DNA of 60,644 nucleotides from a candidate division WOR-3 bacterium (GTDB lineage Bacteria > Hydrothermota > Tepidihabitantia > B3-TA06). Shown here one piece after another: positions 4,996-28,940 of this stretch. The position numbers and the translations under genes were made by a program. The DNA lies in contig CBFGKC010000002.1 of NCBI GenBank assembly GCA_965649265.1, forward strand, positions 1-60,644, given 5' to 3'. Under the pieces are notes generated by a model. It saw only the letters and a program-made list of their open reading frames with translations. It was not told the origin of the DNA and ran no database searches. The number at the start of each line of letters is the position of its first letter. Position 1 is the stretch's first letter.

Positions 4996-5050
4996 ACGGC
5001 ACGACCGGAACACCAGCAGAAAAAAACGCGCAGCCTGAAGGCAGAGGAAA

Positions 5051-5422: not shown

Positions 5423-5558
5423 TGCCGCAAAATGCGCAATCTGCAGCGGACAACAAAGGTGTTACTTTAATGACGAAGAGGTGCATAATGGCGAAAAAGA
5501 ACAAGAACGGCCGGCATATTCCGGGAGAGGGCCCGCGCGTCCGGGACCGGGTGAGAAT

Positions 5559-5936
5559 ATGGAAAAATTCGTAATCACATACGACGACGAGAACGACATC
5601 GTGCGTGTAAGAATACTCGAGGCAATCGGCGGGGAAGATATCGAGGCGCTTTCGATGCAATTCCAGAATGTGGTAAAGGGAAAATCCCGCCGGTACGTCC
5701 TGATTGATTTGTCCGCCAGCGAGGGGTTCTCCACCCAGGTGATGACTAAAGAGCTGCGTGACACGTATAAAAAAATTGCTTCGCTCATGGAATCCGACAG
5801 AAGCGCGATATTCGGCGCCTCGCCCTCGGTGCGCATGGTCGCAAAGATCGCCCTTACCGTAACCGGGAAGTCGAAAACCACCAGGTTCTTTAAAACGATG
5901 GAGGAGGCCGTTGACTGGCTGAAGAAAGAGTCTTAA
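5559..5936 (+). CDS. SpoIIAA-like STAS/SEC14 domain protein, copy 2
   Basis: Start reassigned to MEKFVITYDD by paralog alignment; VLIDLS, GASPSVRMVAK, FFKTMEEAVDWL. Confidence 0.85.
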   Translation: MEKFVITYDDENDIVRVRILEAIGGEDIEALSMQFQNVVKGKSRRYVLIDLSASEGFSTQVMTKELRDTYKKIASLMESDRSAIFGASPSVRMVAKIALTVTGKSKTTRFFKTMEEAVDWLKKES

Positions 5937-5986
5937 GATAAAACAATTCGAGATTCAAAGACACAGAAGTGTGTGTAAGGAGAGGC

Positions 5987-6064
5987 ATGACAGTAATGAT
6001 TAAGGACACGAGGTTCTCTGAAACAGAAGAAGGCATTGCCCGGTTAAAGAAAGGAGAATCGTGA
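5987..6064 (+). pseudogene. C-terminal remnant of a further STAS/SEC14 paralog
   Basis: MTVMIKDTRFSETEEGIARLKKGES resembles TKFFKTEEEAREWLKK; RBS present; GTGA overlap with copy 3. Confidence 0.5.
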
Positions 6065-6492
6065 AGTCCCGGATATGGTACGACGACGATCACGGAATCA
6101 TAAGGTGCTTAATCACCGGCCCCTTTAACACCGGTGACGTGAAAAAAGCCATACTCGAGCTCATGGCCCTCCTGGAATCCTCGGGAACACGTCTCGTCCT
6201 CGTCAATACGAACGATGCGGAAAGGATGATCCCGCCTTGCCGGGAACGAAGTGAAATCAGTGAGTGGTTAAAGAAAGTGAAATGGGAAAAAGCAGCGGTG
6301 GTGGGTACGGATTCTTTTGTGCGCTTGTCGGCCAAGCTGATTCTTTCCGCTTTCACAAAATTGAAAACTGTCCAGTTTTTCAGCAATGAAAAGGGAGCCC
6401 TTTACTGGCTTAAGGACGGAGCGGCACAGAAAGCAAAACCCGGTATCCCGGCAATGCAGGAGCAGACAAAAAAAGCCGATCCTTACTGTTGA
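6061..6492 (+). CDS. SpoIIAA-like STAS/SEC14 domain protein, copy 3
   Basis: IWYDDD, KAAVVG, RLSAK, FFSNEKGALYWL. Confidence 0.85.
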   Translation: MKSRIWYDDDHGIIRCLITGPFNTGDVKKAILELMALLESSGTRLVLVNTNDAERMIPPCRERSEISEWLKKVKWEKAAVVGTDSFVRLSAKLILSAFTKLKTVQFFSNEKGALYWLKDGAAQKAKPGIPAMQEQTKKADPYC

Positions 6493-6590
6493 CCCAGGAT
6501 GCATTCAGAGTAATATTACCCCGTTTTAACCGAGGAAGGAAAGAAGCAAGAACCGGTGCGGTGAACCTGAACCGATGAAAGGAGAGCAGG

Positions 6591-6962
6591 TTGAAGTACA
6601 AGGTATGGTTTGATGAAGAGATAGGCGCGGTATGTTTCAAACAGATGGAACCTTTAACGGTCGAAGATGTACATGTTGTTGTTCCTCAAATGCTCGAGCT
6701 GGTAAAAGGGAAAAGCCATCGATATGTGTTTGTTGATTTATCGGAAGCAACTACAGGTATCGTTGACAGGGAAGCGAGGAAAGCTTTTAGTGAACTTGCC
6801 GATCCCAGGAACTTTGAGCGGATTGCCGTTTATGGGGCTTCACCATCAATAAGGATGCTGGCCAAAATCATTCTGGCCGTGAACGGGGTTTCAAATGTCA
6901 CCAAGTTCTTTAAAACCGAAGAAGAAGCCCGTGAGTGGCTCAAGAAGGATCAAGTAAAGTGA
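6591..6962 (+). CDS. SpoIIAA-like STAS/SEC14 domain protein, copy 4
   Basis: YKVWFDEE, VFVDLS, GASPSIRMLAK, FFKTEEEAREWL. Confidence 0.85.
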   Translation: MKYKVWFDEEIGAVCFKQMEPLTVEDVHVVVPQMLELVKGKSHRYVFVDLSEATTGIVDREARKAFSELADPRNFERIAVYGASPSIRMLAKIILAVNGVSNVTKFFKTEEEAREWLKKDQVK

Positions 6963-7321
6963 AATACGAAGTGTGGTTTGACGAAAATAACAACCTGGCG
7001 AGGGGCGTGGTCAACGAATCCCTGAACGGCCAGGAGGCGGAAGAGATGATGCGCGAAATGGAGGAACTTTTAAAGAAGCACAACCTCCGAAAGGGGATAA
7101 TGGATCTCTCGAAAGCGAACTCCATTACGAAAGTCAGCAAGGAGACGAGGGATGTTTACAGAAAACACTCAAAGACCCTTCCCCTGGACAAAGCGGCCAT
7201 AATCGTCACCTCGCCGATTTTAAGGATGATTGCCAAGGCGGCAGTGTCGGCACTCGGCAGCGGCATGGAAGCCAGATTCCTGAAAACCGAGCGGGAGGCC
7301 CTGGACTGGTTGAAGGATTAA
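6959..7321 (+). CDS. SpoIIAA-like STAS/SEC14 domain protein, copy 5
   Basis: GTG start overlapping previous stop (GTGA); YEVWFDE, IMDLS, FLKTEREALDWL. Confidence 0.85.
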   Translation: MKYEVWFDENNNLARGVVNESLNGQEAEEMMREMEELLKKHNLRKGIMDLSKANSITKVSKETRDVYRKHSKTLPLDKAAIIVTSPILRMIAKAAVSALGSGMEARFLKTEREALDWLKD

Positions 7322-7380
7322 TCGTCCTGAGCCTTTTCGAAGAGGGATGATAAAGACAAAGACATGGGTGACGGGCTTCC

Positions 7381-7408
7381 TTGACAAGTTGATATTCCAG
7401 AGTATATT
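7381..7408 (+). promoter_or_regulatory. sigma70-like promoter of STAS copy 6
   Basis: TTGACA-16-TATATT. Confidence 0.65.
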
Positions 7409-7461
7409 ATATTGAACCTATTGAGGTTCGATTAAGAACCGCTTAGAATCTGGAGGTAGAG

Positions 7462-7848
7462 ATGAGACATCAGGTATGGTTCGATAAGGAATACGATGTC
7501 TTACGGGAGAAGTTTCTGGGAGGTTTCACCGAAGAAGACGTACCACACTATCTTGCGCGTGTCAGAGAAGTCTACGGTTCAAGCAAGCACCATAAAGTCA
7601 TCGTCGATCTCTCGGAGGCAAGGCAGCCTTTCTACGACCGCAGAACAAGGCAGCTCTTGATAGAAGGCGCGGGCAGGCTCAGGTATAAGGAAGAAAGGGT
7701 GGCCATGCTGAACGCCAGCCCCGACATCAGGATGCTTATAAAAGTACTCGTGGCCGGCATGCGTCAGCACGGCAAGGACGTTGAGGCGCGCTTCTTTGAG
7801 TCCGAGAAAGAGGCGCTTGGCTGGTTAAAGAACGGCGGCGAAGAGTAG
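7462..7848 (+). CDS. SpoIIAA-like STAS/SEC14 domain protein, copy 6
   Basis: HQVWFDKE, VIVDLS, ASPDIRMLIK, FFESEKEALGWL; GGAGG RBS. Confidence 0.85.
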   Translation: MRHQVWFDKEYDVLREKFLGGFTEEDVPHYLARVREVYGSSKHHKVIVDLSEARQPFYDRRTRQLLIEGAGRLRYKEERVAMLNASPDIRMLIKVLVAGMRQHGKDVEARFFESEKEALGWLKNGGEE

Positions 7849-8061
7849 AAGCACATCTTCCGGGGGAGGAGGGGTGTTTAGGGTTATTTCCACGAAAATG
7901 AGTGCACCCCAAGCCAAAATTCCGGCCGGCTTCTTTTTAAATGGCCTACCCGATGGTAGTTATTTGGAACGTATCCCCAGATATCGTTTATTTCTCCTCT
8001 CGAGGTAAACAAAAGCATCAATACATTCATAAGCTTGTGCGTAATCATGTTCCTCTTTACT

Positions 8062-8279
8062 AACGCCCTATGATATATAGCCATATCTCAAGGGTCAGAC
8101 CCTCCCCCGTAGGGGACGGGAGGGGTGTTACCGGTGAGGGTTACTGAGGAGGGTGGGAGTGTTACGGGTGTTATTTCCTTGTGGTATAAACTGCATATAA
8201 GAATGACCTATGGAAAGAAGATTCATTCCAAGGGTCAGACCCTGCCCAGAAGGGGGACGGGTGTTACGGGTGTTACGGG
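8062..8279. repeat. Repeat family A, two tandem units
   Basis: CCTATGA/GG..hairpin..CAAGGGTCAGACCCT..GGGGACGGG occurs twice, with GTGTTACGGG runs. Confidence 0.8.
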
Positions 8280-8830
8280 ACGCTTTTTTCTATTTTCCGC
8301 AGACCCTTGACCACGAACTCGAAGGCGGATATGGAACGCTCGAAGGCGTCCTCGGACTGTGCCGAAAGCGAGATGACGGCGACGGTCTGGTCCATTCTCA
8401 CGTACGCGGTGCGCTCGTACAGCTCGTAGGCGCTCTTTTCAGGCGCGAAGCTGCGAACGAGTGCAAGAAGGCTGTCGGCGGTTTCCAGCGTGTTTTCCCT
8501 GGTGATTGCGACGCCGGGATAATCCGTTGAGAGCCTGGCGTTATCTTCCGTCACCCATGTTTCCAGCGACTTGCCTTCGAGGGGAAAAGCGTTGGCGTAG
8601 ATGATGACGTCGGTGGTCGTGAGGTCGGTTTCGACAGGGTACATGACTGCCTTTGCGCCCACTATGTAGGCGTACTTGGTATCGAAGAGCCAGCCTTTTG
8701 GTGCGCCTATGACGAAGGAGTAACCGGGGCCTCCGATTAAACCGCCCGCGCCTTCGCGTTCATCCTCTTCCTGAGCAGCGAGAAAGACGAACGCGCCCAG
8801 CAGGAGTAGTGATGGGAAAAAACGTCTCAT
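8273..8830 (-). CDS. Hypothetical exported protein
   Basis: Start reassigned to MRRFFPSLLLL (signal peptide); TTGACA-16-TAACAT 5 nt upstream. Confidence 0.7.
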   Translation of the reverse strand: MRRFFPSLLLLGAFVFLAAQEEDEREGAGGLIGGPGYSFVIGAPKGWLFDTKYAYIVGAKAVMYPVETDLTTTDVIIYANAFPLEGKSLETWVTEDNARLSTDYPGVAITRENTLETADSLLALVRSFAPEKSAYELYERTAYVRMDQTVAVISLSAQSEDAFERSISAFEFVVKGLRKIEKSVP

Positions 8831-9018
8831 GCGAAATGTTACCTCTCCCCTCTCAAATGTCAAGACCATACACAGTGAAATCAGGGGATGCATTCCTGCC
8901 TCTCCCTCGCGCAAGAGACCGCCAAAAGGCTGCGGGGAATAAGAAACGCCGGTTTGGAGACATGATGGAGCAATTACATTTAAAAAGCGGACTGGATTCC
9001 GCTTTCAGAATTCTGCAC

Positions 9019-13493: not shown

Positions 13494-14447
13494 ATGAAAA
13501 GAGCAGTAATGCTCATGGCATCAGGGCTGACGGCCTTGATGGTGCTCACTGCATGTGAGCAGGAAGGAACCAAGGGTGGTTCAACACTCGACAATCCTAT
13601 CCAGGCTTTCCCGGCAAGACTCACAGACATCCCGGACCCGGAGACTCTTTCACGTTACCCTTATGATCCGAATCTTCTTGTACCTTACGACTACTCATCC
13701 ATCAGTCTGGCCGCATACCCGGAATCGGATTCGAGCCAGATAGATCCGGTCGACTGGCCCATATGGATACCGAAAGCCGAAAGCAGCTTGACGATTCAGG
13801 AATTCCTTGCTTACGAACGCGCCATTTTGCCGGAAACTACTTTGACCCGCCTCGGGTTGGAAAATCCAGAATACTTCGAGGGTGAAGACGGCGGAACCCT
13901 TGAGGAAAGCACCGGTAATGACTGCGACTTCAGCAAGAACCGGCGAGGAGATGTACTCCTCGTTCGAAACCCATGGGTTCCAGTTCCAATCTATCACAAA
14001 CACGCCGGGGTCTGGAGAGGTACTGAAAAGGAAAACTCAATTTACAGAAACAAAGAAATTGTACATTCAATCTCGTCGGGTGTATGCTGGGCTTCGGATG
14101 GAAGCTATCTGTCATACTGGAATCACTGCCGGGTTATGCGCGTAAACACCTCTCCACACAGCACAAACTACAGAAACGTGGCCGCAACGTACTGCGAAAA
14201 TCAATATGGTAAGCCTTACAACTACAACTGGCTCTGGAAGTACGACGAGCAAAGATTCTACTGCAGTCAGCTTGCCTGGGCCGGATACTGGCGCTGTGGA
14301 GCTAAAAACCCGCGCATCGACATCGACATATACTGCATTCATTACATCCCGCAGTTCGGCTTCGTCCCCGATTTTCACGTGGCCCCGGATGAGATATGGA
14401 TAAACTGGCGCACATATCAGATTGCGAAGAGTTCAGGAAAATGGTAA
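13494..14447 (+). CDS. Lipoprotein with C-terminal permuted papain-like (YiiX/YycO-like) amidase
   Basis: Lipobox LTAC; RRGDVLL, HKHAGVW, QYGKPYNYN, FYCSQLAW, VAPDEI. Confidence 0.85.
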   Translation: MKRAVMLMASGLTALMVLTACEQEGTKGGSTLDNPIQAFPARLTDIPDPETLSRYPYDPNLLVPYDYSSISLAAYPESDSSQIDPVDWPIWIPKAESSLTIQEFLAYERAILPETTLTRLGLENPEYFEGEDGGTLEESTGNDCDFSKNRRGDVLLVRNPWVPVPIYHKHAGVWRGTEKENSIYRNKEIVHSISSGVCWASDGSYLSYWNHCRVMRVNTSPHSTNYRNVAATYCENQYGKPYNYNWLWKYDEQRFYCSQLAWAGYWRCGAKNPRIDIDIYCIHYIPQFGFVPDFHVAPDEIWINWRTYQIAKSSGKW

Positions 14448-15523
14448 AAAAGTGCATTCCGATTCTCTTTCTTGTTTTGTTATCATTGGTGGATTGTCAC
14501 AGGGATGGGGATACCCCCATCCCTGTACCCGGGCACCCGGCCTTCATCCTCAACTCCGGTTCGGGCTTCAACACCATAACGGTTCTCGATCTCGATAAAA
14601 TGGAGGTCATCGGTTACCGCAAGGCGGTGAACGGCAAAAATTATATAATCGAGGATTTCGCTCTGTCGCCGGACAATCACATATTTCTGCCGATCTCGTG
14701 GTTCATGCAACCCGTTTCGGACGGTAAATGCGTACTGGTTGACAATATAGAAACCGATGAAATCCTTACAGATTCCATCCCTACGTCTTTATGGCCAACC
14801 TATATTTATCCGTTTCTTGACGACACCAGGGCTTTTATAGGTCACCCGGGGATCATCCTCGGCGATACCGATGTGGTATCCACCGAGCTCGATCTGGTCA
14901 ATCGAAAGGTAATAAAGACATTCAGGTACAAGGGACTTCTGGATAACGTACTTACCTTTGCAGACGGCGGTACATACCTCCTTTATACTCAAGGATGGGA
15001 ACCAAACAAGCAGTTTATCAGAAGCTTCGATGCGTCCGGGGATTCAATGACAGGTCAACCCCTGGAGGTTGGCGCTCCTTCGGCGTTGGTATGCGCGGTT
15101 GTCGTTTCTGATTCCGAGTTCGCAGCTCCCGGAAACAATGGCATCGCTTTCTTTAACCGCAATACGGGAAAGCTTATGTCCGAGGTCGCTCTTGCAGACA
15201 GCCCGGACAGGTGCGTGGTTGTTAAAGGCAAACTCTATGTCTGTCACAACACTGGATGGCTTATGAAGAACGGCAACTTCAAGAAGGTTTCCGTCATCGA
15301 TCTGGGGACAAGATCCGTAATAAAGACAATAGAAGTCTGTAACGCACCTGTTGACATAGCATACTCGAAAGCCACAAACAAGATAGTCGTGGTTTCAGGA
15401 GTAGGAACCGTCATTACGATTATTGATCCTGACGGCGATTCGGTCACTGCGACCATTGTCTCCGACGAAGTGGGCGACGTGGACGACAAATTGGGATACT
15501 ACCGTTTACGGATACCTGAATGA
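14441..15523 (+). CDS. YncE/YVTN-type beta-propeller, probable lipoprotein
   Basis: Start MVKKCIP; hydrophobic signal ending LVDC; KLYVC, VSVIDL..VIKTIEV..P.DIA repeats. Confidence 0.75.
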   Translation: MVKKCIPILFLVLLSLVDCHRDGDTPIPVPGHPAFILNSGSGFNTITVLDLDKMEVIGYRKAVNGKNYIIEDFALSPDNHIFLPISWFMQPVSDGKCVLVDNIETDEILTDSIPTSLWPTYIYPFLDDTRAFIGHPGIILGDTDVVSTELDLVNRKVIKTFRYKGLLDNVLTFADGGTYLLYTQGWEPNKQFIRSFDASGDSMTGQPLEVGAPSALVCAVVVSDSEFAAPGNNGIAFFNRNTGKLMSEVALADSPDRCVVVKGKLYVCHNTGWLMKNGNFKKVSVIDLGTRSVIKTIEVCNAPVDIAYSKATNKIVVVSGVGTVITIIDPDGDSVTATIVSDEVGDVDDKLGYYRLRIPE

Positions 15524-15549
15524 AAACTAAAGGTCAAAGTCAAAAAAAC

Positions 15550-15577
15550 TTGACAAAATACGTGCTCATTATACAAT
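15550..15577 (+). promoter_or_regulatory. sigma70-like promoter
   Basis: TTGACA-16-TACAAT. Confidence 0.7.
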
Positions 15578-15616
15578 CCTCTCCGTAAATCATAAGCCAA
15601 TTTTCGAGGAGGATAT

Positions 15617-16666
15617 ATGCATTACCCTATCTGCGACAAGTGGGACGAAAAAGCCTGTGACGTCACGCTCGACAACGGCGACAAGCCCGAAAAGGACGGC
15701 GATTACTTCCGGATCTCGGGTACCGCCAAGAACATACATGAGTTGAATTGCAAGCTTCCTCACTTGCGTCTGAACGTGGAGTTTTTCGATTCCAAGGGAA
15801 AGAATCTCGATATGGGCGTTCTGGGCGAGGAGGTGGACGACTCAGGAAACTGCGGCTGTATCGTTCACGTGAGCGACCGCGCGGTTTCGCCTGGGGAGGT
15901 TGCCCAGTTCAAGCTCGAGGGGTTGTGGCACCCGAAGATGAAGACCGTCAAGGTCTCGACGAGGCCAAAGGTTGAACCTCACCCCGACGTTCCGCCGTCG
16001 GTGCCCGACGGTCTAGAGATTGAACCGCTCAACGCGTGGCAGGACAGGATAACGCTCGGCAAGAAATCGGCCGTAGTCCAGCGCGGAGACATCGTTTTGG
16101 ACGCGGGTCCCGCGGAGGGGGTCATAAGCGTTTTCTCGGCCATGATAGCGATAGTCACCAACAGCCCGTACCATCACGCGATGATATATGACTGCGACTG
16201 GAACGTCGTTCACGCAACGTGGCCGGAGGTCGAGCGCAACACCCTCAAGAAACTCTACCTGAACATGCCCGACTCGATACTCACATGGGTAAGGCCGAAG
16301 TACCCCCAGAGACAGGTAACCCAGGAAGACGCGGCAAAGGCGCTCGAATTCGCGTCGAAGCAGATCGGGCTTGAGTACGACCTCATTGCCAACGCCGGGT
16401 TCCTGTTCCGCGCCGACGGCCTGCCCGAGATGCCCAAGGACATCGAGAAGCTCTTTCAAAACCGCAACTGGCTCTCCAAACGCAAGAAGTGGCACTGCTC
16501 CGAACTCGCCGCGGGCGCGTGGTGGCTGGGCGCCGGCCTCGAACTCGTGAAAGATATGAGACAGAAGGACTTTCTCTCACCCGCAGACATCTACACCTCC
16601 CACTATCACGATGTGGTGGCGACCCTTATCATTCGCGACGGCAAGCCGGAGCTATATACCAAATAA
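15617..16666 (+). CDS. FxLYD-like + permuted papain-like amidase, copy 3
   Basis: VEFFD; QRGD, SPYHHA, GLEYD, WHCSE, LSPADI; GAGGAGG RBS. Confidence 0.85.
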   Translation: MHYPICDKWDEKACDVTLDNGDKPEKDGDYFRISGTAKNIHELNCKLPHLRLNVEFFDSKGKNLDMGVLGEEVDDSGNCGCIVHVSDRAVSPGEVAQFKLEGLWHPKMKTVKVSTRPKVEPHPDVPPSVPDGLEIEPLNAWQDRITLGKKSAVVQRGDIVLDAGPAEGVISVFSAMIAIVTNSPYHHAMIYDCDWNVVHATWPEVERNTLKKLYLNMPDSILTWVRPKYPQRQVTQEDAAKALEFASKQIGLEYDLIANAGFLFRADGLPEMPKDIEKLFQNRNWLSKRKKWHCSELAAGAWWLGAGLELVKDMRQKDFLSPADIYTSHYHDVVATLIIRDGKPELYTK

Positions 16667-16670
16667 ACAA

Positions 16671-16754
16671 TCCCACAACAATCACTGGGTGATTTTTGTG
16701 GGGTCCCAAAACAACAAGCCCCAAGAAATTGCACAACAATTTCTCGGGGACCCC
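16671..16754 (-). repeat. Two tandem repeat family B hairpins
   Basis: 16671-16707 CCCACAA..TTGTGGGGTCCC and 16719-16754 CCCCAAGAAATTG..CAATTTCTCGGGGACCCC. Confidence 0.75.
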
Positions 16755-16834
16755 GGGGAGTAAATGTTCTTTAGCCGGATGCCATCTAAAGAAAGAGCTT
16801 GACTTTGCACAAGCGCAACCTATCATCCTGAAAC

Positions 16835-17893
16835 TTGAAACCATCCCGGAGGCAGCACGTGGAGATTTTGACCGCAGTCACAAAAAAAATCCCTAGGCAA
16901 GTTTCCGATACGAGCAGAAGCTGGTCGGCTAATGCCGGTCTCATAAGAAACTTGACATGGACAAGGTGCGGGGATTTCCTCGAGGTGTCCGGGACGGTTA
17001 CCAATGCGGCCAAGGAAGGCCTTTCGCATCTCATGCTCCGAATCAAGCTCTACAACGAAGAGGGGAGGCTGCTGCTTACCGACGATTTCCACCTGACCAA
17101 CCGCCTGCTCGCTCCCCGTGAAAGCTCGAAATTCAAGTACTCGTGTGAATGGAGGCCGGGGATCCGCGACGTCAGCGTTGCGATATGCCCTTATCCAAGC
17201 GAATTGGATATCTCAGTCGATCCCTCGCCTCAAATCAAGATCCGCGAGATCAACGAACAGGAAGACGAACTCCTGGTGGGCAGGAAGAGGGTCAAAATAC
17301 AAAAGGGCGATCTGGTGTTCGCTCGAGTGGACGACGTGCTCGATAAATCCGCCGCACTGGGCGGGCCGGTCAGGCTCGTCACGCGCAGCCCTTACTACCA
17401 TATGCTCGTCTACGATCACGCCGGCAAGTTCGTTCACGCCTTCTGGCCCACGACCGAGGAGAACGATATCTTCCACTTCTATCTTACAAGACCCAATCTG
17501 CTTCTGGCTTTCGGCCGTCCCCTGCACAAGGACCTCTCCGAGGCCTCTCCCGAAGAGGGCGCCCGGGCTATCCGATATTCACGGGCTCAGATAGGCAAAC
17601 CCTACGACGTCGGCGCCAACTTTTCCTATCTCTTCCGCACCGACGGCGTTCAGAAGATGCCTTATTTCCTCAGGAAATTCTTCGATAAAAACAACCGACT
17701 CAGAAGCGCGAAGAAGTGGCAGTGCTCGGGACTCGCGTGCGCGGCGTGGTTCCATGCCGCCGGCATCAAGTTCGCGGATAACCTCCAGGACTACATCTAC
17801 CTCTCTCCTGCTGACATGGCCGAATCAATGTACGTGAAAGTCTATGCCTACCTCAAGGTTGCCGACGGCGAGCCTACGTTACTTAAAAGATAG
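16835..17893 (+). CDS. FxLYD-like + permuted papain-like amidase, copy 4 (start uncertain)
   Basis: IKLYN; QKGD, SPYYHM, GKPYD, WQCSG, LSPADM; promoter TTGACT-16-TATCAT at 16799-16826. Confidence 0.8.
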   Translation: MKPSRRQHVEILTAVTKKIPRQVSDTSRSWSANAGLIRNLTWTRCGDFLEVSGTVTNAAKEGLSHLMLRIKLYNEEGRLLLTDDFHLTNRLLAPRESSKFKYSCEWRPGIRDVSVAICPYPSELDISVDPSPQIKIREINEQEDELLVGRKRVKIQKGDLVFARVDDVLDKSAALGGPVRLVTRSPYYHMLVYDHAGKFVHAFWPTTEENDIFHFYLTRPNLLLAFGRPLHKDLSEASPEEGARAIRYSRAQIGKPYDVGANFSYLFRTDGVQKMPYFLRKFFDKNNRLRSAKKWQCSGLACAAWFHAAGIKFADNLQDYIYLSPADMAESMYVKVYAYLKVADGEPTLLKR

Positions 17894-17951
17894 AACCCAT
17901 GGAAATGGCGCGACAATCCCTGACATTTTTTCAGGTAATCGACAACTTCAA

Positions 17952-17986
17952 GGGGTCCCCGTAAAATACCACGTAATCTTACGGGG
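17952..17986 (+). repeat. Repeat family B (REP-like hairpin)
   Basis: GGGGTCCCCGTAA...TTACGGGG between convergent genes. Confidence 0.7.
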
Positions 17987-17988
17987 GG

Positions 17989-19911
17989 TTAAATCTTTTC
18001 GAGAAGTTCGCGCGACTTGTCAGGTTCTGCCCTGCCCTGACTCTGCGCTGTCACCTCACCGAGAAGAAAATCTAATGTCAACTCCGGACTTCTGTACTGC
18101 ACGTCCTTGAACTCCAATTTGACCTTACTGCATAAGGTCTCAAGATCCGCTTCCGAGAGAGGGGGAGGGGGTTCCAGTTTGTCTCCGTAAAGAAGCTTCT
18201 CGAAAGAAAGATATAGGGCCCTGCGCGGGGTTTTGCGCTCTGCCGCAAGCTTAAGGAAACGTTCGATATCCTCGTCCGCGATGCAAGGAGGGACAAGACT
18301 TACCTCAACCATGTCCCTCGTAATCTCGCGCCGCCACGAAACCAGAATCTCCGCAAGGAACTTCGGTTCCATCTCAAGTTTCTCCACAAGCCTGTCAAAC
18401 AGCCTTGCCCTTGTATCTATCGCGAGTTTTTTCGCAAGGTGCGCGGGGATATCCATGTTGAGATAACGCTCCTCTCGCTCCCACGGACGCGGTGCCATAT
18501 CCTGTGAAATTCGTTCGACCCGCTCCCGCGCGAGCGCGATGGGCGGTGAGTCGGTATCCGGGTACATCCTGTCCGGGCCGGGAAGTATGCGCTCGAAATC
18601 GGTGCGGCAGGCGTCGGGCATGTGCTGGCGAGTTTCCTGTGGCACGAACTCTGCGGCCTCCTTGGCCCTTGCGATCACCTCGTCGACCGCGGTCCTTGCG
18701 TCCTGCGCCGGTCCCCAGACGAGCACGACGGCGTCATCGGCAGATGCCGATATGGCCTTGCGCAGGCGAACCTCCTCCTCAAGACCTATCCCCTCGCCTT
18801 TTTCGTCGAGAACGAATATGTTCGGCATCTCGTCCAGGCATGCGATTACACGCACACGGCCGGCAACCTCGTTCGCGAACGTCAGACCGGGTTGAGTCTT
18901 GTACCTGAGAAGTTCGTCCCATCCCTCGAGCACGACCGCTTTCACGACATCGCCCTGCTTGACTCTGGCCGAGAGCCTCTCGTTCGTTGAATTCTCAACG
19001 AGGCTCGTGACGTCGACCTCCCTCGCGCCGAAACTCTCCGGGGTTATGCCTTTCCCGGCAAGCTTTTCCTTGAGCTCGAGCAGCGCCTTGTGCCGCAGCG
19101 CCTCGTAATGCGTGAGTGCCCGAATGTCCGGCGTCCGGGGAACGCCCTTTATCTCGACCCTGTCTGAACCGATAATAGATACGTTCACGTCCTGGCGCGC
19201 GGAACCGATTCCCCTGCGAACCCTGCCGGAGGCTCTCAATAGTCTGCCTAAAAGCTCATCCACCTCAGCCGCCTCATGCGGGGTGAACATGTCCGGCTTG
19301 GTAACGATCTCAATGAGGGGGGTGGAGAGGCGGTCGGTTCTGAATATTATCGTATGGCGTTTGTCCTCGACTTCCCTGCACGCGTCCTCCTCCAGCGCGA
19401 GCTGCTGGATTCTTACCTTTCTTCCCCTGTACGGTATCCAGCCGTTGACGCCGATTATGGCCGTGCGCTGGAAGCCCGTCGGAATGGAACCGTCCAGGTA
19501 TTGCTTGCGAGTGATATGCACCTCGTCAACGAGCTGGCAGTTGAGCATGAGCGCGATCTCGATAGCGTAATCCAGCGCCTCCTGGTTTATCGGGAAGGGA
19601 GGGGTGTCGTCCATCTCGTAGGTGCAGACATTGTCCCTGTAGAGCTGATATATGACCTGCTTCTTGGTCTTGAATTCCATGAGCGCGGTGCCGTCGTAGG
19701 TACCCATCTCCGATAACGTCGGGCGCATGTGCCTCAGTATGACGGCATCGGGCTCGTCGTTGCGGTATCCCACGGGGCAGTGGCAGAAGAGCTTCTTCGA
19801 AGTGTTCAACTGCTGGTGAATCTCGAGTCCGCACTTGAATCCGAGCTTCGAATAAAACTCCTTGTCGTCGAAATCCACGCCCTCGGTCAACTTCTTATGC
19901 CACGCATCCAT
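17989..19911 (-). CDS. gatE: Glu-tRNA(Gln) amidotransferase subunit E
   Basis: GLEIHQQL..KLFC, DGSIPTGFQRT, LEEDACR, DRLSTPLIEI, RRGIGSARQDVNVSI, PGPDRMYPDTD, plus AspRS-like insertion. Confidence 0.92.
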   Translation of the reverse strand: MDAWHKKLTEGVDFDDKEFYSKLGFKCGLEIHQQLNTSKKLFCHCPVGYRNDEPDAVILRHMRPTLSEMGTYDGTALMEFKTKKQVIYQLYRDNVCTYEMDDTPPFPINQEALDYAIEIALMLNCQLVDEVHITRKQYLDGSIPTGFQRTAIIGVNGWIPYRGRKVRIQQLALEEDACREVEDKRHTIIFRTDRLSTPLIEIVTKPDMFTPHEAAEVDELLGRLLRASGRVRRGIGSARQDVNVSIIGSDRVEIKGVPRTPDIRALTHYEALRHKALLELKEKLAGKGITPESFGAREVDVTSLVENSTNERLSARVKQGDVVKAVVLEGWDELLRYKTQPGLTFANEVAGRVRVIACLDEMPNIFVLDEKGEGIGLEEEVRLRKAISASADDAVVLVWGPAQDARTAVDEVIARAKEAAEFVPQETRQHMPDACRTDFERILPGPDRMYPDTDSPPIALARERVERISQDMAPRPWEREERYLNMDIPAHLAKKLAIDTRARLFDRLVEKLEMEPKFLAEILVSWRREITRDMVEVSLVPPCIADEDIERFLKLAAERKTPRRALYLSFEKLLYGDKLEPPPPLSEADLETLCSKVKLEFKDVQYRSPELTLDFLLGEVTAQSQGRAEPDKSRELLEKI

Positions 19912-21299
19912 TACCTTAAACCTCTTTTCAAAAACTCTTCGATCTCGGGAAGCCCGCCCTGGAAGATGAGGTAGCCGTCGTGCGGTTCGCGCTCGGTTAT
20001 CTCTCCGTTGACCGGAGTGTTCATCATTTTCGCCACCTCCTGTCTGTCATGCGTGTGCGCGAGCACCCAGCCGAGCTTTATGTAGGCGACCTCAGGCAGC
20101 ATGTTCGAGCAGGGAACGACACCGAGTTCCATGAGATCGCGGCCCGTATCGTAGACGAACATCTGAACGTAGCCCCAGAGGGTCTGCACGGTCATGACCA
20201 CCGAGATGCCCTGTTTGCAGGCCTTGCGAAGCGGTTCGTAGAGCGGCTTGTTGACGTGCCCGAGCCCGGTGCCCGCAATCACGATGCCCTTGTAGCCGTT
20301 GTCGATGAGGGATTCTATGATATCAGGCTTCATGGCGGGGTAGTAGTAGACGATAGCCACGCGGTCGTCGAACACTGCGTCCACCTTCACATTGCGGTCC
20401 TCTCTTCTGGGCTTGAAATCCTTTCGAATCGGATTCACGGCATCCGGTGTGCAGGTCGCAACAGGGATATCGGAGAGTGTCCTGAACGTCGAGCGGTAAG
20501 ACGAATGCATCTTGCGAACCCTAGTTCCTCTATGCAGAAGATTGTAGGAATCTGATGTCGGGCCGAACATGCAGACCATCACCTCCGCTATCGGGCCCCG
20601 CGCCGCGGTGTTGCAGGCGCATCTTAAATTGAACGCCGCGTCCGATGAAGGACGATCACTCGAACGCTGGGAACCGACCATTATGATGGGCACGGGCGAA
20701 TCCTGAACCATGAAGGTCAAGACGGCCGCCGTGTGATGCATTGTATCGGTTCCGTGGCCGATAACGATCCCTGCTGCACCGGCCTCTATCTCTCTGCCTA
20801 TGGCCTTCGCGGTAGTGATGTACTGCTCGGGTCCCATGTTCTCCGAGAATACACCGAAAAGCTTCTCCGTCTTCAAATTGCATATGTCCGCCAGCTCGGG
20901 CACCGCGCCGTAAAGCTCACCGGGCGTGAACGCCGGGATTACCGCGCCTGTCCTGTAGTCGAGCCTCGAGGCGATAGTCCCCCCGGTACCCAGGAGCGTG
21001 ACGTTCGGCTTCACGGGATCAAAGGGAAACTCCTTTTCAGGGATCTTGTAGTGCGCCTCGCGGAACCCCTTCTCGGTCACGCGCTTAATCCTGTCGACCG
21101 CCAATCCGACATTGTATCCGGTGTCCAGTTTCAAAACCATGTGCTGGTCATCGGCCTGCTCGGAACGAGGTAGTATAATGCCCTCAAATATACCCTTGTC
21201 GGTCTCGATCTCAACGTCCGCCCAAACCCGCGCCCCCATACTGGATAATACCTCGCGCGCGCGTCCGCGGTAGCCTTTAAGTTGGTCAGTTTCGTTCAT
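19911..21299 (-). CDS. gatD: Glu-tRNA(Gln) amidotransferase subunit D
   Basis: N-terminal LKLDTGYNVG domain plus asparaginase core GTGGTIASRLDYRTGAV, HGTDTM, SQRSSDRPSSDA, RKMHSS. Confidence 0.93.
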   Translation of the reverse strand: MNETDQLKGYRGRAREVLSSMGARVWADVEIETDKGIFEGIILPRSEQADDQHMVLKLDTGYNVGLAVDRIKRVTEKGFREAHYKIPEKEFPFDPVKPNVTLLGTGGTIASRLDYRTGAVIPAFTPGELYGAVPELADICNLKTEKLFGVFSENMGPEQYITTAKAIGREIEAGAAGIVIGHGTDTMHHTAAVLTFMVQDSPVPIIMVGSQRSSDRPSSDAAFNLRCACNTAARGPIAEVMVCMFGPTSDSYNLLHRGTRVRKMHSSYRSTFRTLSDIPVATCTPDAVNPIRKDFKPRREDRNVKVDAVFDDRVAIVYYYPAMKPDIIESLIDNGYKGIVIAGTGLGHVNKPLYEPLRKACKQGISVVMTVQTLWGYVQMFVYDTGRDLMELGVVPCSNMLPEVAYIKLGWVLAHTHDRQEVAKMMNTPVNGEITEREPHDGYLIFQGGLPEIEEFLKRGLR

Positions 21300-21334
21300 T
21301 TAATCTTTTCCTTCGGGTCTTTGTATTGGGAGTG

Positions 21335-21404
21335 ATGATACTCCATAAGGCGTGAAAGTCAAGAAGTTGGGAAGTCTTGACAAATGTCTCCCGAGGTCTA
21401 AACT
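21335..21404. promoter_or_regulatory. Divergent sigma70-like promoters
   Basis: Minus TTGACT-16-TATCAT (21335-21362); plus TTGACA-16-TAAACT (21377-21404). Confidence 0.65.
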
Positions 21405-21435
21405 AATCTCGTAAACTTCGAATTGGAGGACAGGG

Positions 21436-22836
21436 ATGAGAAGAATCCACATTATCGCAGTGCTAATCCTAATCGCCGGCTCTTCAGCTTATGCGGGGTG
21501 GTGGAGGACGTATGGAGATGAAGGATATAATTGCAATGCATATTGTGTTCTGCAAACTGATGACGGAGGGTATATAATTTCTGGCGATCCTTGGCAACTG
21601 ATGAAAGTAGATAAAAAGGGAGCCATCGAATGGAAAACTGATAGAGGTTATCCTGCTAAAGGCTGGGGAGGGTATTGTGTCGATAAAACCGATGGCGGTG
21701 GATATATTACGTGTGGCCACCAACCAGTAAGTAATTATAGTTGGTTTTATATGTTAGCCAAATACAACGGGGTAGGTGATACACAGTGGACTCGTAGATG
21801 GGGGGGTGGGGGGTGGTCACCTCGGTGGATAGAACAAACCTGTGATGGTGGTTACATAGTAACGGGTTCTATTGTTTGTATAGACGAGTTCGAACCGTGG
21901 TCTGTGATTACCTTATGTAAGACGGATAATGAGGGTAATATAGTGTGGGAGAAATTCTACGGTCTTCAATATGCGGATCAGTTTAGCTATGGTCATTGTG
22001 TTCAGCAAACCACGGATGGTGGTTATATCGTTTCAGGTGTTACGTGGTTAGAGTTGCTTTGGTTAATAAAGACGGATTCCATGGGTAATACAATGTGGGA
22101 AATAAAAGGAAACGGAGACGTGCCGCTGGAACTAGGCGTAGGACGGTTTGTGCGACAAACGACCGATGGAGGTTATATTGTTGTCGGGAACATGTATTTC
22201 GCTAATCATGATGAGTCTATTTACCTGCTTAGAACAGATTCCTTAGGTAACATATTATGGACTAAATACTTCGGAGATGAAACCTATGGAGATGATGCAC
22301 GATGCGTCCAGCAAACTATTGACGGGGGGTACATAATTACGGGTTACAACCGTTCTTTAAAAATGAATAACGATCTCTGGCTTATAAAGACAGACTTCTT
22401 GGGTGATACCCTTTGGACTCGAACTTATGGAGGAGAAGGATCGGATGTAGGTAACTCCGTACAACAAACGGGCGACGGCGGATATATAGTTGCAGGCTCT
22501 ACAACCTCTTTTGGAGCAGGCGAAAGTGACATCTATCTTTTGAAGACCGATTCCCTCGGCCTTCTCGGTATCTCCGAACCGCCCCCCGTAACACCCGTAA
22601 CACACCTCGAGATACTCTCATCGATTGGTCTTTCCATTACCATGCGTTACTCAAATTGCCAAGGCGGGTTTCGTGCGTTAGTCTACGATGCAGGGGGGAG
22701 GAGGGTGGATGAAATTATCGCCCCAAACCAATCCGGAGTCTTGGTTTGGGGAACCCGCCAGAATCCTGGAATCTACTTCATAAGGGTGGACTTGGGAGCA
22801 ATGCCTGCGGCTCAAAAGATCGTTATTATAAAATAA
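21436..22836 (+). CDS. Secreted beta-propeller repeat protein with T9SS/FlgD-like C-terminal domain
   Basis: Signal peptide; 7 x (Q)TxDGGYI..G..(W)L.KTD..G...W repeats; YDAGGRRV..PGIYFIR..KIVIIK tail. Confidence 0.85.
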   Translation: MRRIHIIAVLILIAGSSAYAGWWRTYGDEGYNCNAYCVLQTDDGGYIISGDPWQLMKVDKKGAIEWKTDRGYPAKGWGGYCVDKTDGGGYITCGHQPVSNYSWFYMLAKYNGVGDTQWTRRWGGGGWSPRWIEQTCDGGYIVTGSIVCIDEFEPWSVITLCKTDNEGNIVWEKFYGLQYADQFSYGHCVQQTTDGGYIVSGVTWLELLWLIKTDSMGNTMWEIKGNGDVPLELGVGRFVRQTTDGGYIVVGNMYFANHDESIYLLRTDSLGNILWTKYFGDETYGDDARCVQQTIDGGYIITGYNRSLKMNNDLWLIKTDFLGDTLWTRTYGGEGSDVGNSVQQTGDGGYIVAGSTTSFGAGESDIYLLKTDSLGLLGISEPPPVTPVTHLEILSSIGLSITMRYSNCQGGFRALVYDAGGRRVDEIIAPNQSGVLVWGTRQNPGIYFIRVDLGAMPAAQKIVIIK

Positions 22837-22934
22837 CCATTATCCATCTTGACAGGATGCTTTTTCATATTACAATATTTACGTAAACTTTGTGGTCATC
22901 CGTATGAGGTTGAAGCGGATGAAAGGAGGATAGG

Positions 22935-24506
22935 ATGTTTGTTTACGCTTTCCTTATCACAATCGGAGCCTTAAGCTCAAACAGCGCGGTGGATTATATA
23001 ATGGAATCCAGAATGGCGGCGAACACGGCCAAAGAGAGCAAAGGCGAAATAGCCTCAAAACCCGCCGATTCTTTAATAACCGAATGGACAGGCGCAGGAA
23101 ATCTGACCGGATACAATGTAAGCAACGACCTTCAGGGATGTGGACACTTCCCTGGTCTTGATTCTAGCTATCTGGGAACAGGCGAATTCCCCAGGGGGTC
23201 GGAAGAATACTACATCTACTCCGCGGGGTTCTGGTTCGGCGCCCTGCTTGAAAACAACAAGCCTTCCGTCTCTAAGGCGGCTTACAATTGCGATATGGGC
23301 GCCATGTCCGTACCCGAGATGACGAACGCAGGCCCCCTGGGAGACATATCGGGCAGAGGTATATACAAAAGCACAATGCTGATACCTGAAGGTTACGAAG
23401 GCGCCGGCGATTTCCTTTTTGTCCAATACGGCGAAGAGCCAAAGCCGTATCAGATTCCATGGCCTTTTACCGATCTTTCATTGAACAAACATTTTGCGAC
23501 CCAGGACGACTCGCTTGAAGAAGGCGACATTTTTTCCGACGAGGATACCTATACGATCGGAGGCGACTGGATACCTGAAGACCAGGCCTTAACAAGATGG
23601 GTGCTTTCCACGGGTCCATACGACGAAAACGGGCTTGGAATAAGGGTCGAACAGAGGACTTATTCGTGGAGCAAGGCGTATCTGGCCGACGTGATCGTGA
23701 TCAACTACAAGATAATGAACATGAACGACTTTGCGCTCAAGGCTCCCTGCTTCAGCTTTTTTATGGACCCCGATATCGGCTATGGCGGAGCATTCCCCGG
23801 CGACAAGGGCAGTTGGGATGACTTAACGGGTTTCGACAAGGCGCGTGATCTTGGATATGCCTACGATTCGGATTCTTACGAGGAAGGATGGTCTAACAGC
23901 CCGGGATACATAGGTGTAGTCTTCCTCGAAACCCCTGACGGGCGAGGATTGACAGGATTTGTATCTTATGAAAATAAGGCCGATCAGCTTGTCGACAACC
24001 CCGGAACAGACAGCATTAAGTACTCATACATGAATTTAAAGGTTTTTAATGCAATGGAAAATCCCACAGAAGTTCGAATGTTATTGAACTCCGGACCTTA
24101 TCCTGATTTGAAACCGGACAGTGAGTGCAATTATACAGTCGGCATCGTCGCAGGAGAGACCTATTCGACGATGATTGAAACGGTCGACAGGATAAGGGAA
24201 GATTTCAATCTGGGTGTGACCGAAGATGAGATTGGCAGCTACGCCCCCCTCCCCCTTGCTCTCGAGGTAGTGAGAGGGTCTGAACACGAATACGCCATCC
24301 GGTATACCTTACCCGCTCAGACGGATGTGAGTATCGGCGTCTACGACGCGTCGGGCCGCAGGCTGGAGGTTTTGAGAGCCGCTCGTGAGACCGCAGGCAC
24401 TCACTTCTTTACATGGGATGCCGGTGGAGTGTCCTCGGGCGTCTACTTCGTGAGGCTCGAGACTGGTGCGGGTTCTGCGACCGCGAAGCTTCTGGTCCTT
24501 GATTGA
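22935..24506 (+). CDS. Secreted protein with T9SS/FlgD-like C-terminal domain
   Basis: FMDPDIG..DD..GFD..RDLGYAYD core; IRYTLP..VYDASGR..WDA..SGVYFVRL..KLLVLD tail. Confidence 0.8.
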   Translation: MFVYAFLITIGALSSNSAVDYIMESRMAANTAKESKGEIASKPADSLITEWTGAGNLTGYNVSNDLQGCGHFPGLDSSYLGTGEFPRGSEEYYIYSAGFWFGALLENNKPSVSKAAYNCDMGAMSVPEMTNAGPLGDISGRGIYKSTMLIPEGYEGAGDFLFVQYGEEPKPYQIPWPFTDLSLNKHFATQDDSLEEGDIFSDEDTYTIGGDWIPEDQALTRWVLSTGPYDENGLGIRVEQRTYSWSKAYLADVIVINYKIMNMNDFALKAPCFSFFMDPDIGYGGAFPGDKGSWDDLTGFDKARDLGYAYDSDSYEEGWSNSPGYIGVVFLETPDGRGLTGFVSYENKADQLVDNPGTDSIKYSYMNLKVFNAMENPTEVRMLLNSGPYPDLKPDSECNYTVGIVAGETYSTMIETVDRIREDFNLGVTEDEIGSYAPLPLALEVVRGSEHEYAIRYTLPAQTDVSIGVYDASGRRLEVLRAARETAGTHFFTWDAGGVSSGVYFVRLETGAGSATAKLLVLD

Positions 24507-27455: not shown

Positions 27456-28940
27456 TTAGTCCATCGATCGTTCGCCCGGAAGTTCGACCTCGGTGACCCT
27501 GGGAAGATGACCGAACACTCTTGCATACATTTCGGCATATGCGTCCTTGCCTCCGGCAAGCATGAGCGTCAACGGCATAGTCATCCGACCAAGGTGAATC
27601 ATCTGATTGGACAGGCTCTTTATCTCCCACTGGGCATGAGCGTCCGAGCGCAGGCGCGAGAAGTGGTAAAGTTCGCGCGCATTGAGAGTCAAAAGCACCC
27701 GGCGGCGGTGGGCGTTCGTGAGGCAGTAGAACGCAACCTCAAAGTTTTCCTTTGATAATTCGTGATAAAGCTCTGCACTCTGGTCCATGACTCGCATGAA
27801 TTCATGCGATTGGCCTATCTTCTCGACGGGTTCGGGCACGGTCACCCCGAGGGAAACGTCGTAAGGCTGCGGAGAGAAAGTGGACATACGGTGGCGCTTG
27901 AGCTGTCCGAAACAGGAGGAGGAGCATACCACTTCATATGTTAGAGATACGTGTTCGAACTCGCGAAGCATCGAATCGTAAAGTTCCGCCCGCTCGAGAG
28001 CGATCTTTATAAGACGAAGACGCTCATCTTCCGTCATCTCTTCGACTTTATTTCTGCATGATTCGTAGGATGCGTTCGAGACGCGGTGCAGGAGCGAAGC
28101 CAGGAGCTTGTGGTCAGGATCGGGTGAGGTCTCGACCAGCGTGACCTCTGCCTGCGGGAGCTTCTCATACTCGATCTTCTTTGAGAAACCGGCGAGAGCG
28201 GGGTAGGTCTCGACATCGAGGGGATTGGCCTCACAGAAGAGAAGAATGGAGGGTGCAACCGCCCTTGCTTCGTCGTAGAGCCTTGCGCCGAGCGCCCTCG
28301 CCTCGGCTAGCGGATGGGAGGCCAGGCGCCGGATAATGAGCTCAAGTTCACGCGCGTTGACGGTCATGCCTAGCTGGCTCTGCGTCGCGAGGGACGCGAC
28401 ATATCGCGCATCCTCCTTGGCCCTGTTGGCAAGTTCCCTTTTGTTTTCTGCAAGGACCGGATCCTCGTCTGCGTGATAGACCTTGAGCGCGTCGAAGAGC
28501 GAGTGGTAGAGGACATTCTGGGATTCGATGAGCGCGCGGAACTCCTCTCCCCTCCCCAGTTCCAAGATCTCGTGCGGCATTACGTAATCATCCTTCAAGG
28601 TTATGTAGCGCTGGGACTTTTCGGTATAGGAGGCGAGGCGGAAATTCTCCAGAGCCTCGACGGCCAGTCGCGAGACGCCGATGATGTCGAAGTTGAATAC
28701 TGCATGCTCGGCAACGGAGTGATGGCCCATCTCGAATATGATGGTGCGGTTCGAGCCCCGCGCCTTCTCCACTTCCTCGCGCGCCCGTTTGCGGAGTTCG
28801 TCCACCCTCTGCGGGTAACGGCTAATGCGCGCGTAGGCCGCCGAGAGCGTCTCAGGTGTGACAGGGAGGTTCTTTTCTCCGGCCAGAAGACCCTTGATTA
28901 TTGTCGTATCAAGATTGAATCCCGCGAGGATGACTTCCAT
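27456..28940 (-). CDS. thyX: FAD-dependent thymidylate synthase, tandem two-domain form
   Basis: GHHSVAEH, EKSQRY, EDARY, NAREL in domain 1; QLKRHR, NAREL.HF.RLR...HAQWEI in domain 2. Confidence 0.9.
   Translation of the reverse strand: MEVILAGFNLDTTIIKGLLAGEKNLPVTPETLSAAYARISRYPQRVDELRKRAREEVEKARGSNRTIIFEMGHHSVAEHAVFNFDIIGVSRLAVEALENFRLASYTEKSQRYITLKDDYVMPHEILELGRGEEFRALIESQNVLYHSLFDALKVYHADEDPVLAENKRELANRAKEDARYVASLATQSQLGMTVNARELELIIRRLASHPLAEARALGARLYDEARAVAPSILLFCEANPLDVETYPALAGFSKKIEYEKLPQAEVTLVETSPDPDHKLLASLLHRVSNASYESCRNKVEEMTEDERLRLIKIALERAELYDSMLREFEHVSLTYEVVCSSSCFGQLKRHRMSTFSPQPYDVSLGVTVPEPVEKIGQSHEFMRVMDQSAELYHELSKENFEVAFYCLTNAHRRRVLLTLNARELYHFSRLRSDAHAQWEIKSLSNQMIHLGRMTMPLTLMLAGGKDAYAEMYARVFGHLPRVTEVELPGERSMD

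Follow-up and report, generated by a model that had tools for sequence, protein, structure and literature searches.

The stretch of DNA analysed here (60,644 nucleotides, below called the window) makes up the first 60.6 kb of contig C2, a 239,569-bp piece of a bacterial genome (G000; 2.74 Mb, 96.4% complete, 0.04% contamination). It carries adjoining gatD and gatE genes for the two subunits of an archaeal-type Glu-tRNA(Gln) amidotransferase (Glu-AdT). On balance, we favor the explanation that this GatDE was acquired horizontally and would be a functional second Glu-AdT working by the known GatDE mechanism, next to the bacterial enzyme GatCAB that is encoded elsewhere in the same genome. The window GatDE is a member of a distinct subfamily, which we call window-like and which occurs in bacteria as well as in archaea. 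The window itself is bacterial and diderm. Genes for BamA and DnaE, pointed out in an earlier note on this sequence, indeed lie in it (Table 1), together with those for CysRS (cysS), an OmpA/Pal-type protein and a two-component system. The central claim of the same note, a complete archaeal-type GatDE in a diderm bacterium, is borne out, as both subunits score above curated cut-offs and lie on a bacterial contig.

GatD reaches 513 bits with TIGR02153 (cut-off 324) and 510 bits with NF003217 (cut-off 310), and it matches all three of the Pfam families Asparaginase, Asparaginase_C and GatD_N (the last at 52 bits, cut-off 25.7). Against solved structures, the archaeal GatD chains 2d6f_A and 1zq1_A gave 417 and 414 bits, and asparaginases 145 bits or less. 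Residues T108, T184-D185 and K263 (positions in both subunits were counted by hand from the alignments) line up with the archaeal GatD motifs GTGGT, HGTDT and RKMH, in which we take the catalytic residues to reside by analogy with the asparaginase literature. A threonine nucleophile and a Thr-Lys-Asp triad are described for GatD in the available part of PMC2330236. The window GatD also has a C-terminal extension of about 18 residues, which is not present in the two solved archaeal GatDs.

GatE gave 513 bits with NF003107 (cut-off 456) and 445 bits with TIGR00134 (cut-off 320), whereas the best of the GatB models, the cut-offs of which span 315 to 680 bits, reached 168 bits (cut-off 338). Among solved structures, GatE from P. 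abyssi and M. thermautotrophicus matched at 328 and 313 bits and GatB chains at 98 bits or less. The possibility that this protein is a GatB, which the earlier note had raised against its own reading, is thus rejected; the AspRS-like insertion is present as well, and a true gatB is found on another contig (C12). Residues H32, E174 and E201 align with the Mg2+ ligands H15, E157 and E184 of M. thermautotrophicus GatE, and they are invariant in all 21 sequences of one alignment (A1) and in all nine of a second (A2), which includes canonical archaeal sequences. The accessible text of PMC2330236 places these archaeal ligands in the kinase site and states that their mutation inactivates the enzyme.

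An AlphaFold model of GatE built on the 21-sequence alignment has a predicted local distance difference test (pLDDT) score of 84.6 and a predicted template modelling (pTM) score of 0.83. A Foldseek search with this model placed 1zq1_C (E-value 3e-47, TM-score 0.82) and 2d6f on top, archaeal GatE matches ranging from 3e-47 to 1e-43 in E-value and from 0.80 to 0.82 in TM-score, and GatB chains followed. The protein consists of the cradle, the AspRS-like insertion and a helical and divergent tail region, in which confident helices are modelled up to residue 639. The insertion (residues ~290–420, pLDDT 80–95) aligns with archaeal GatE, its match to the Pfam family GAD being weak (20.1 bits, cut-off 23.4), as are the Foldseek matches to AspRS. 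The basic loop beside the 1-72 pair of the tRNA, which takes the place of the 3-10 turn of GatB, has the form seen in canonical GatE.

Homology, gene adjacency and the stop/start overlap suggest that the two subunits would form a GatD2-GatE2 complex with an ammonia tunnel. By homology with the known enzyme, GatD, an asparaginase-type amidohydrolase, would free ammonia from Gln or Asn, and this ammonia would move to GatE. With the help of ATP and the Mg2+ bound by H32, E174 and E201, GatE would phosphorylate the side-chain carboxyl of the glutamate on tRNA-Gln and would then amidate the activated Glu to give Gln-tRNA-Gln. We infer the activity of the enzyme, its substrate, its acceptance of tRNAs with a U1-A72 pair and its physiological role. 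An ancestor of the host's family (WOR-3, judging from how the nearest database proteins are named) would have gained GatDE horizontally and kept it alongside the resident gatCAB.

A trivial explanation would be an archaeal fragment that was mis-assembled or mis-binned into a bacterial contig, and the elevated base composition of gatDE, about 6 GC points over the contig mean (0.57–0.58 versus 0.513 for the whole of C2), speaks in its favor. The statement of the earlier note that the composition is similar to that of neighboring genes holds only roughly, the left neighbors having 0.55 and the right ones 0.45–0.47, and other 1-kb stretches of the window likewise have a GC content of 0.56–0.60. 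However, gatDE is embedded in a long contig that carries bamA, dnaE and cysS, and contamination of the genome is very low. Furthermore, GatD is found above the cut-off in all 11 genomes of the family (f1; the host and ten others, from four genera), whereas 30 further genomes from the same order or class gave no GatD above it. Here and below, absences were called partly in incomplete genomes and are not proof of absence. In three other genera of the family, gatD and gatE adjoin with a 1- or 4-nt overlap, and their upstream neighbor is unrelated to that in the window. Contigs from other metagenomes (23,997 nt from run X5; 7,732 nt and 19,099 nt from run X2) span the left neighbor through gatE and gatD, from 17402 to 21375, with ~89% identity. 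Hence, the left junction is bridged by independent contigs; none from other assemblies was found to the right of 21627, so that they do not bridge the right junction. With the pair present in 10 of 10 other family genomes and the left junction bridged, the pair is not the chimera about which the earlier note had been cautious, and we give an artefact virtually no chance. The sequencing runs listed as holders include ten DNA runs, each with a share of at most 0.07, and no RNA run.

The earlier note had further proposed that GatDE took the place of the route by which bacteria normally make Gln-tRNA-Gln, and it had suggested checking the genome for gatCAB, glnS and asnS. This check found gatCAB and AsnRS (474 bits), but no GlnRS. 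The genes gatC, gatA and gatB are adjacent and intact on contig C12; gatC is a weak match of 30 bits, whereas gatA and gatB exceed their cut-offs with 553 and 520 bits, and two other genomes of the family (G001 and G003) hold GatB too. A search with the glnS model identified a single bacterial GluRS only, neither a GlnRS nor an archaeal-type GluRS being found in the 96.4%-complete genome. A bacterial AspRS is present (661 bits), AsnA was not found in the host genome, and the best match to AsnB in it scored 97 bits versus a cut-off of 267.

The tRNA genes of the host (43 by ARAGORN) complete the picture. Both of the two tRNA-Gln genes (CTG on contig C1 and TTG on C7) combine a U1-A72 pair with G73 and a D-loop of 7 nt. 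In the tRNA-Glu genes, the pair is G1-C72 and the D-loops are longer than those of tRNA-Gln (1-72 pairs and D-loops were parsed by hand). A1-U72 is the identity element of tRNA-Gln reported for archaeal GatDE, and according to the text available of PMC2330236, both amidotransferases use a longer D-loop as an antideterminant. The difference in the first base pair between the archaeal and the bacterial substrate, which the earlier note had invoked, points in the opposite direction here: both tRNA-Gln genes are of the bacterial type, so that no archaeal-type tRNA arrived along with GatDE. As there is no GlnRS, the single bacterial GluRS must mischarge tRNA-Gln; Glu-tRNA-Gln is thus made in this organism and could serve GatCAB as well as GatDE as a substrate. 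The lack of GlnRS and the retention of GatDE throughout the family would suit a replacement. However, as the resident gatCAB is intact and other members of the family also have GatB, GatDE adds to the bacterial route instead of replacing it, and a takeover is barely credible.

A search of 81 Thermoplasmatota genomes with the window GatE gave a bimodal result with nothing in between. In 14 of them, a window-like GatE was found (49–57% identity, 493–646 bits), whereas the remaining ones have a canonical GatE (31–41% identity, 315 bits or less). Five of the 14 carry both types. These five also hold two GatDs: a window-like one, which aligns at 62–70% identity up to and including the C-terminal extension, and a canonical one (37–45%), whose gene adjoins the canonical gatE. 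In all of the other nine, the family model finds a single GatE, which is window-like. The contig with the window-like gatE in G376 (C37) also encodes ribosomal protein S3ae, TYW1, aIF-2 and an archaeal GlmU, which shows that this host is archaeal; another contig (C13 of G381) encodes a bacterial-type Tgt, and its assignment is doubtful.

Alignment A2 shows what sets the class apart, in motifs that window-like GatEs share in both domains of life: RHMRPTLSEMG-YDGTALMEFKTKK; TYE-DDTPPF; RKQYLDGSIPTGFQRT; EEDACRE; FERILPGPDRMYPDTD. In the AspRS-like insertion, window-like sequences have RVRVIACLD--PNI versus G-FHSDELP-YG (G-x-FHSDELP-x-YG) in canonical ones. The basic loop by the 1-72 pair is identical in both classes, and the tail motif LMG-VM----G-VDG also occurs in both.

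Most of the archaeal holders have a further route to Gln-tRNA-Gln. GlnRS was found above the cut-off (685–745 bits) in 10 of 13 window-like Thermoplasmatota holders (10 of 14 overall), GatB in none of ten tested, and GlnRS and/or canonical GatDE in 12 of 14. In the two others (G167 and G421), neither GlnRS nor GatB was found and window-like GatDE is the only route detected, the completeness of these archaeal genomes not being given. That nine holders have just this one GatE and that in two of them it is the sole route detected speaks for a working Glu-AdT in this subfamily.

Some observations on these archaeal genomes are of interest in their own right. The GlnRS genes of G372 and G439 lie at L127 8556–10241 (contig C5) and L128 3131–4819 (contig C5), the former next to the gene for an archaeal-type class I LysRS and to sulfhydrogenase-like genes and the latter near an aNOP56-like gene. 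GlnRS is also above the cut-off in the Thermoplasmatota-assigned genomes G381, G384, G407, G387, G433, G415, G427, G398 and G168. The portion available of a review from 2022 (PMC9499178) states that GlnRS occurs in no archaeon. In G418 (contig C12; L116 7711–13002), gatD (minus strand) and gatE (plus strand) are divergent, and glnA for a type I glutamine synthetase (454 bits, cut-off 429) starts 13 nt after gatE.

The closest database proteins are GatEs of "candidate division WOR-3 bacterium" (69–74% identity), and the next-closest are from metagenome-assembled genomes (MAGs) named Deltaproteobacteria, Caldisericia, Zixibacteria, Eisenbacteria and Thermoplasmata; such titles are the submitters' own and bins can be mixed. 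Two GatE-type peptide patterns, searched in one genome per species, were found in at least 598 stretches, 594 of which were confirmed by tblastn. Among the best 80 of these, 78 have bacterial titles, some of them doubtful: Ignavibacteria, Bacteroidota, Aminicenantes/Acidobacteriota, Zixibacteria, Krumholzibacteria, Fermentibacteria, Calditrichota, Planctomycetota, Caldisericia, Myxococcota and others. Similar annotations in other uncultured bacteria, which the earlier note had expected, do exist. Within phyla, the distribution is sparse: GatE is present in 8 of 121 genomes of the window's phylum (4 of ~31 families) and in 11 of 201 genomes of the phylum of a Melioribacteraceae genome (G164).

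All 30 bacterial holders examined have GatB and/or GlnRS beside GatDE. In the window's phylum, seven of eight hold GatB and the eighth (G064) holds GlnRS. Of 22 holders in other phyla, 19 have GlnRS, 10 have GatB, 7 have both and none has neither. Of these 22, all but one have AsnRS (21), and GatB is present in the one without it; the idea that GatDE fills in for a missing AsnRS is rejected on this ground. Two further candidates for a general feature of GatDE failed. A dedicated second GluRS as a partner is rejected, as just 4 of the 22 have a true second copy, and so is a linked tRNA, since any tRNA is found in 3 of 60 loci and tRNA-Gln in none. No conserved neighbor was found among the window, L020, L022, L069, L089, L039, L040, L058, L061 and three archaeal loci. 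The gene order is D-E in the window and L020 and E-D in L089, L069, L039, L040 and L061; L022 and L058 have a lone gatE.

Several of these loci have neighbors worth recording. In a Bacteroidota MAG (L040, 5962–10940), gatE-gatD is followed by a convergent glnS; the gatD frame is short here (431 aa, model positions 1–329), possibly owing to a frameshift or an assembly error. In an Ignavibacteria MAG (L039, 5959–11723), gatE-gatD is followed by metG. In G064, gatE is preceded by a tRNA-Glu(CTC) gene ~200 nt upstream (L031 5723–5799, on the same contig as L108); this is the one genome of the phylum with GatE and GlnRS and without GatB, and another lies ~5 kb from gatE in L033. On a Melioribacteraceae chromosome, a gene for an RtcB-family RNA ligase is divergent beside gatE (L089 3863–5344). 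In an 83%-complete genome of the window's phylum (G106, contig C38, 4629–6107), the GatE match is interrupted by a TAA and starts only after model position 146, which may point to gene decay or to an error of assembly.

The sparse distribution argues for horizontal transfer. It thus supports a horizontal transfer as such, as envisaged in the earlier note, whereas the replacement that the note attached to the transfer is not supported, given the intact gatCAB. As the nearest copies are in other bacterial phyla, the last hop was probably from bacterium to bacterium. The alternative is vertical inheritance from a bacterial ancestor, or from LUCA, the last universal common ancestor, with loss nearly everywhere. 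The presence of the subfamily in many bacterial phyla agrees with it, and the available text of PMC9499178 reports a proposal that GatCAB and GatDE were both in LUCA. However, besides being so sparse, the genes disagree with taxonomy: GatEs of two other families of the same phylum are 52% (over 529 aa) and 46% identical to the window GatE, but in a 7.3-Mb genome titled Polyangiaceae the identity is 64% for GatE and 86% for GatD. The gene order varies by lineage as well, and we consider vertical inheritance very improbable.

The reading of the window GatDE as a second Glu-AdT has several points against it. It would be redundant with GatCAB in the host. Neither host tRNA-Gln gene has A1-U72, and with its basic loop as in canonical GatE, no adaptation to U1-A72 is visible. 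The Pfam domain GatB_Yqey (PF02637) was not detected in the window GatE, its alignments to hidden Markov models and to PDB chains end at residues 528–575 (536–575 with solved GatE), and both the window GatE and that of L020 have a degenerate tail motif, the C-terminal tail of GatE being reported to bind the tRNA D-loop. Moreover, most holders outside the window's phylum have GlnRS (19 of 22 in other phyla and 10 of 14 in Thermoplasmatota) and AsnRS is present in 21 of the 22, so that a housekeeping Glu-AdT is unneeded where GlnRS is present, which leaves room for a different function. On the other hand, GatDE has been kept beside GatCAB in at least four genera, which argues for a non-redundant role. 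A division of labor is plausible, in which GatDE would make Gln and GatCAB would mainly serve tRNA-dependent Asn synthesis, since searches for AsnA and for a bona fide AsnB found neither of them; this Asn synthesis may require GatCAB in any case.

In the most serious alternative, the amidotransferase is neofunctionalised and window-like GatDE is an accessory module. Candidate functions are the amidation of Asp-tRNA-Asn in tRNA-dependent asparagine synthesis, backup charging of tRNA-Gln from glutamate under nitrogen stress with Asn or Gln as the donor, clearing of mischarged Glu-tRNA-Gln, or action on a substrate outside translation. Another route is nearly always present (in 8 of 8 holders of the phylum sample, 22 of 22 in other phyla and 12 of 14 in Thermoplasmatota), and the subfamily has a conserved signature of its own, including the different insertion motif and the GatD extension. 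GatD is unusually conserved, at 70–86% identity where GatE has 47–64%. Single cases of glnA (G418), glnS (L040) and metG (L039) as neighbors hint at glutamine or aminoacyl-tRNA metabolism, and bacterial tRNA-Asn and tRNA-Gln both have U1-A72. However, every catalytic residue of a Glu-AdT is kept, and GatDE is the only detected route in 2 of 14 archaeal holders. The comparison of loci and genomes yielded no dedicated second GluRS, no linked tRNA, no missing AsnRS to be filled in and no conserved neighbor, all of which weigh against a new function, and we regard it as unlikely. A somewhat wider version, in which a horizontally mobile subfamily has left housekeeping and become accessory to GlnRS, GatCAB or canonical GatDE, is a tentative one that we find possible, if doubtful; its roles could be, under scarcity of free amide amino acids, tRNA-Gln charging or formation of Asn or Gln on tRNA, or else action on a novel substrate.

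The second Glu-AdT that we favor has the same two-subunit architecture as the archaeal GatDEs of M. thermautotrophicus (2D6F) and P. abyssi (1ZQ1). The N-terminal domain and the asparaginase fold of GatD with its Thr/Thr-Asp/Lys motifs are kept. GatE retains its cradle, including the three Mg ligands His/Glu/Glu, along with the AspRS-like insertion and the basic loop. In contrast to these, the host is a bacterium with GatCAB and its tRNA-Gln is U1-A72 instead of A1-U72; the window GatE is 31–39% identical to canonical sequences, and it comes with its own signature motifs, a changed insertion motif, the GatD extension and a degenerate tail. In the archaeal system GatDE is the sole route to Gln-tRNA(Gln), any GatCAB there being for Asn where AsnRS is lacking, whereas gatCAB and AsnRS are both present here. 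The window-like copies of Thermoplasmatota (for example G376 C37 and G418 C12) belong to the same subfamily, with 45–57% identity in GatE, 62–70% in GatD and the same motifs and extension. They too are mostly found beside another route, but their hosts are archaeal, 5 of 14 have a canonical GatDE operon in addition, and gatD and gatE are often unlinked or divergent.

GatCAB performs the same chemistry, combining a kinase and amidotransfer on mischarged tRNA, with a homologous cradle. It reads U1-A72 tRNAs, and its glutaminase GatA is an amidase, whereas GatD is of the asparaginase type. An amidotransferase beside direct synthetases is usually explained by tRNA-dependent asparagine synthesis. 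According to the accessible text of PMC2811023, GatB has no AspRS-like insertion, reads U1-A72 with its 3-10 turn and has a Lys-rich tail motif. Thermus, Deinococcus and Bdellovibrio keep an apparently redundant amidotransferase beside GlnRS and AsnRS, as described in the portion available of PMC4206432. Their enzyme is GatCAB, however, whereas the window genome has an extra GatDE, and GatCAB is absent in most GatDE holders.

In the available portions of PMC2330236, PMC2811023 and PMC9499178, GatDE is said to occur in archaea only and to have co-evolved with archaeal tRNA-Gln; the absence of GlnRS uptake in archaea is put down to this co-evolution. We found no paper on a bacterial or duplicated GatDE in the literature searched, most subscription journals and supplements lying outside its coverage. 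As public annotation already names bacterial proteins GatD and GatE, the novelty is the recognition of the class and its context and not the gene call. In the present case, a bacterial family that has GatCAB and tRNA-Gln of the bacterial type stably retains a complete GatDE. Should this enzyme act on U1-A72, the proposed strict link between GatDE and A1-U72 fails for the window-like class; if it is inactive on U1-A72, this class has a new function. Should the accessory role prove true, the view of GatDE as an archaeal signature and the sole route to Gln would give way to two GatDE classes with different biology. In any case, the system is a testable one for the choice of tRNA by amidotransferases, the upkeep of apparently redundant routes and the frequency of crossing of core translation enzymes between domains.

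At the locus, both reading frames are intact and overlap by one nucleotide, as the earlier note had read them: the last A of the gatD stop codon TAA is the first A of the gatE ATG. This overlap suggests translational coupling of the two genes, and AAGAGG and AAGG precede the gatE ATG. The bacterial sigma70-like promoter of that note was also recovered 5' of gatD; it is a consensus match only, which ends 36 nt before the gatD ATG. In 17700–21600, six promoter-like sites were found, versus 1.9 ± 1.5 in shuffled sequences.

Table 1. Coordinates of gatDE, its putative expression signals and other features of the window.
Feature	Position	Strand	Remarks
gatD	19911..21299	minus	462-aa open reading frame (ORF); glutaminase/asparaginase subunit
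gatE	17989..19911	minus	640-aa ORF; tRNA-dependent kinase/amidotransferase subunit
gatD/gatE stop/start overlap TAATG	19909..19913	minus	read directly in the sequence
Sigma70-like match TTGACT-16-TATCAT	21335..21362 (21362->21335)	minus	10/12 consensus matches
Shine-Dalgarno-like GAAGG	21310..21314	minus	10 nt 5' of the gatD ATG; read directly
bamA	39894-42155		TIGR03303, 447 bits (cut-off 297)
dnaE	56285-59812		1343 bits
Protein with two ThyX (flavin adenine dinucleotide-dependent thymidylate synthase) stretches	27456-28940	minus	494 aa; ~2x usual length
Clp/Hsp100 ATPase	42152-44560	minus	802 aa; misses the cut-offs of both ClpB (1008 versus 1232 bits) and ClpA
Four small ORFs in a row	6061-7848	plus	123-143 aa; stretch of high GC skew (0.14-0.15)

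The genes flanking gatDE (13494–17893 and 21436–24506) belong to no NCBIfam family, bar one weak beta-propeller-like match to hydrazine synthase beta (43 bits, cut-off 560). The right neighbor, a protein of 466 aa, has repeated GG-Y-I-type motifs and is not kept beside gatDE in other genera. An Rfam scan of the whole window gave two tRNAs and nothing else; no Rfam family coincides with the run of small ORFs, nor does a tandem repeat, which was looked for in 5000–9000. The double-length ThyX product may be a tandem-domain enzyme.

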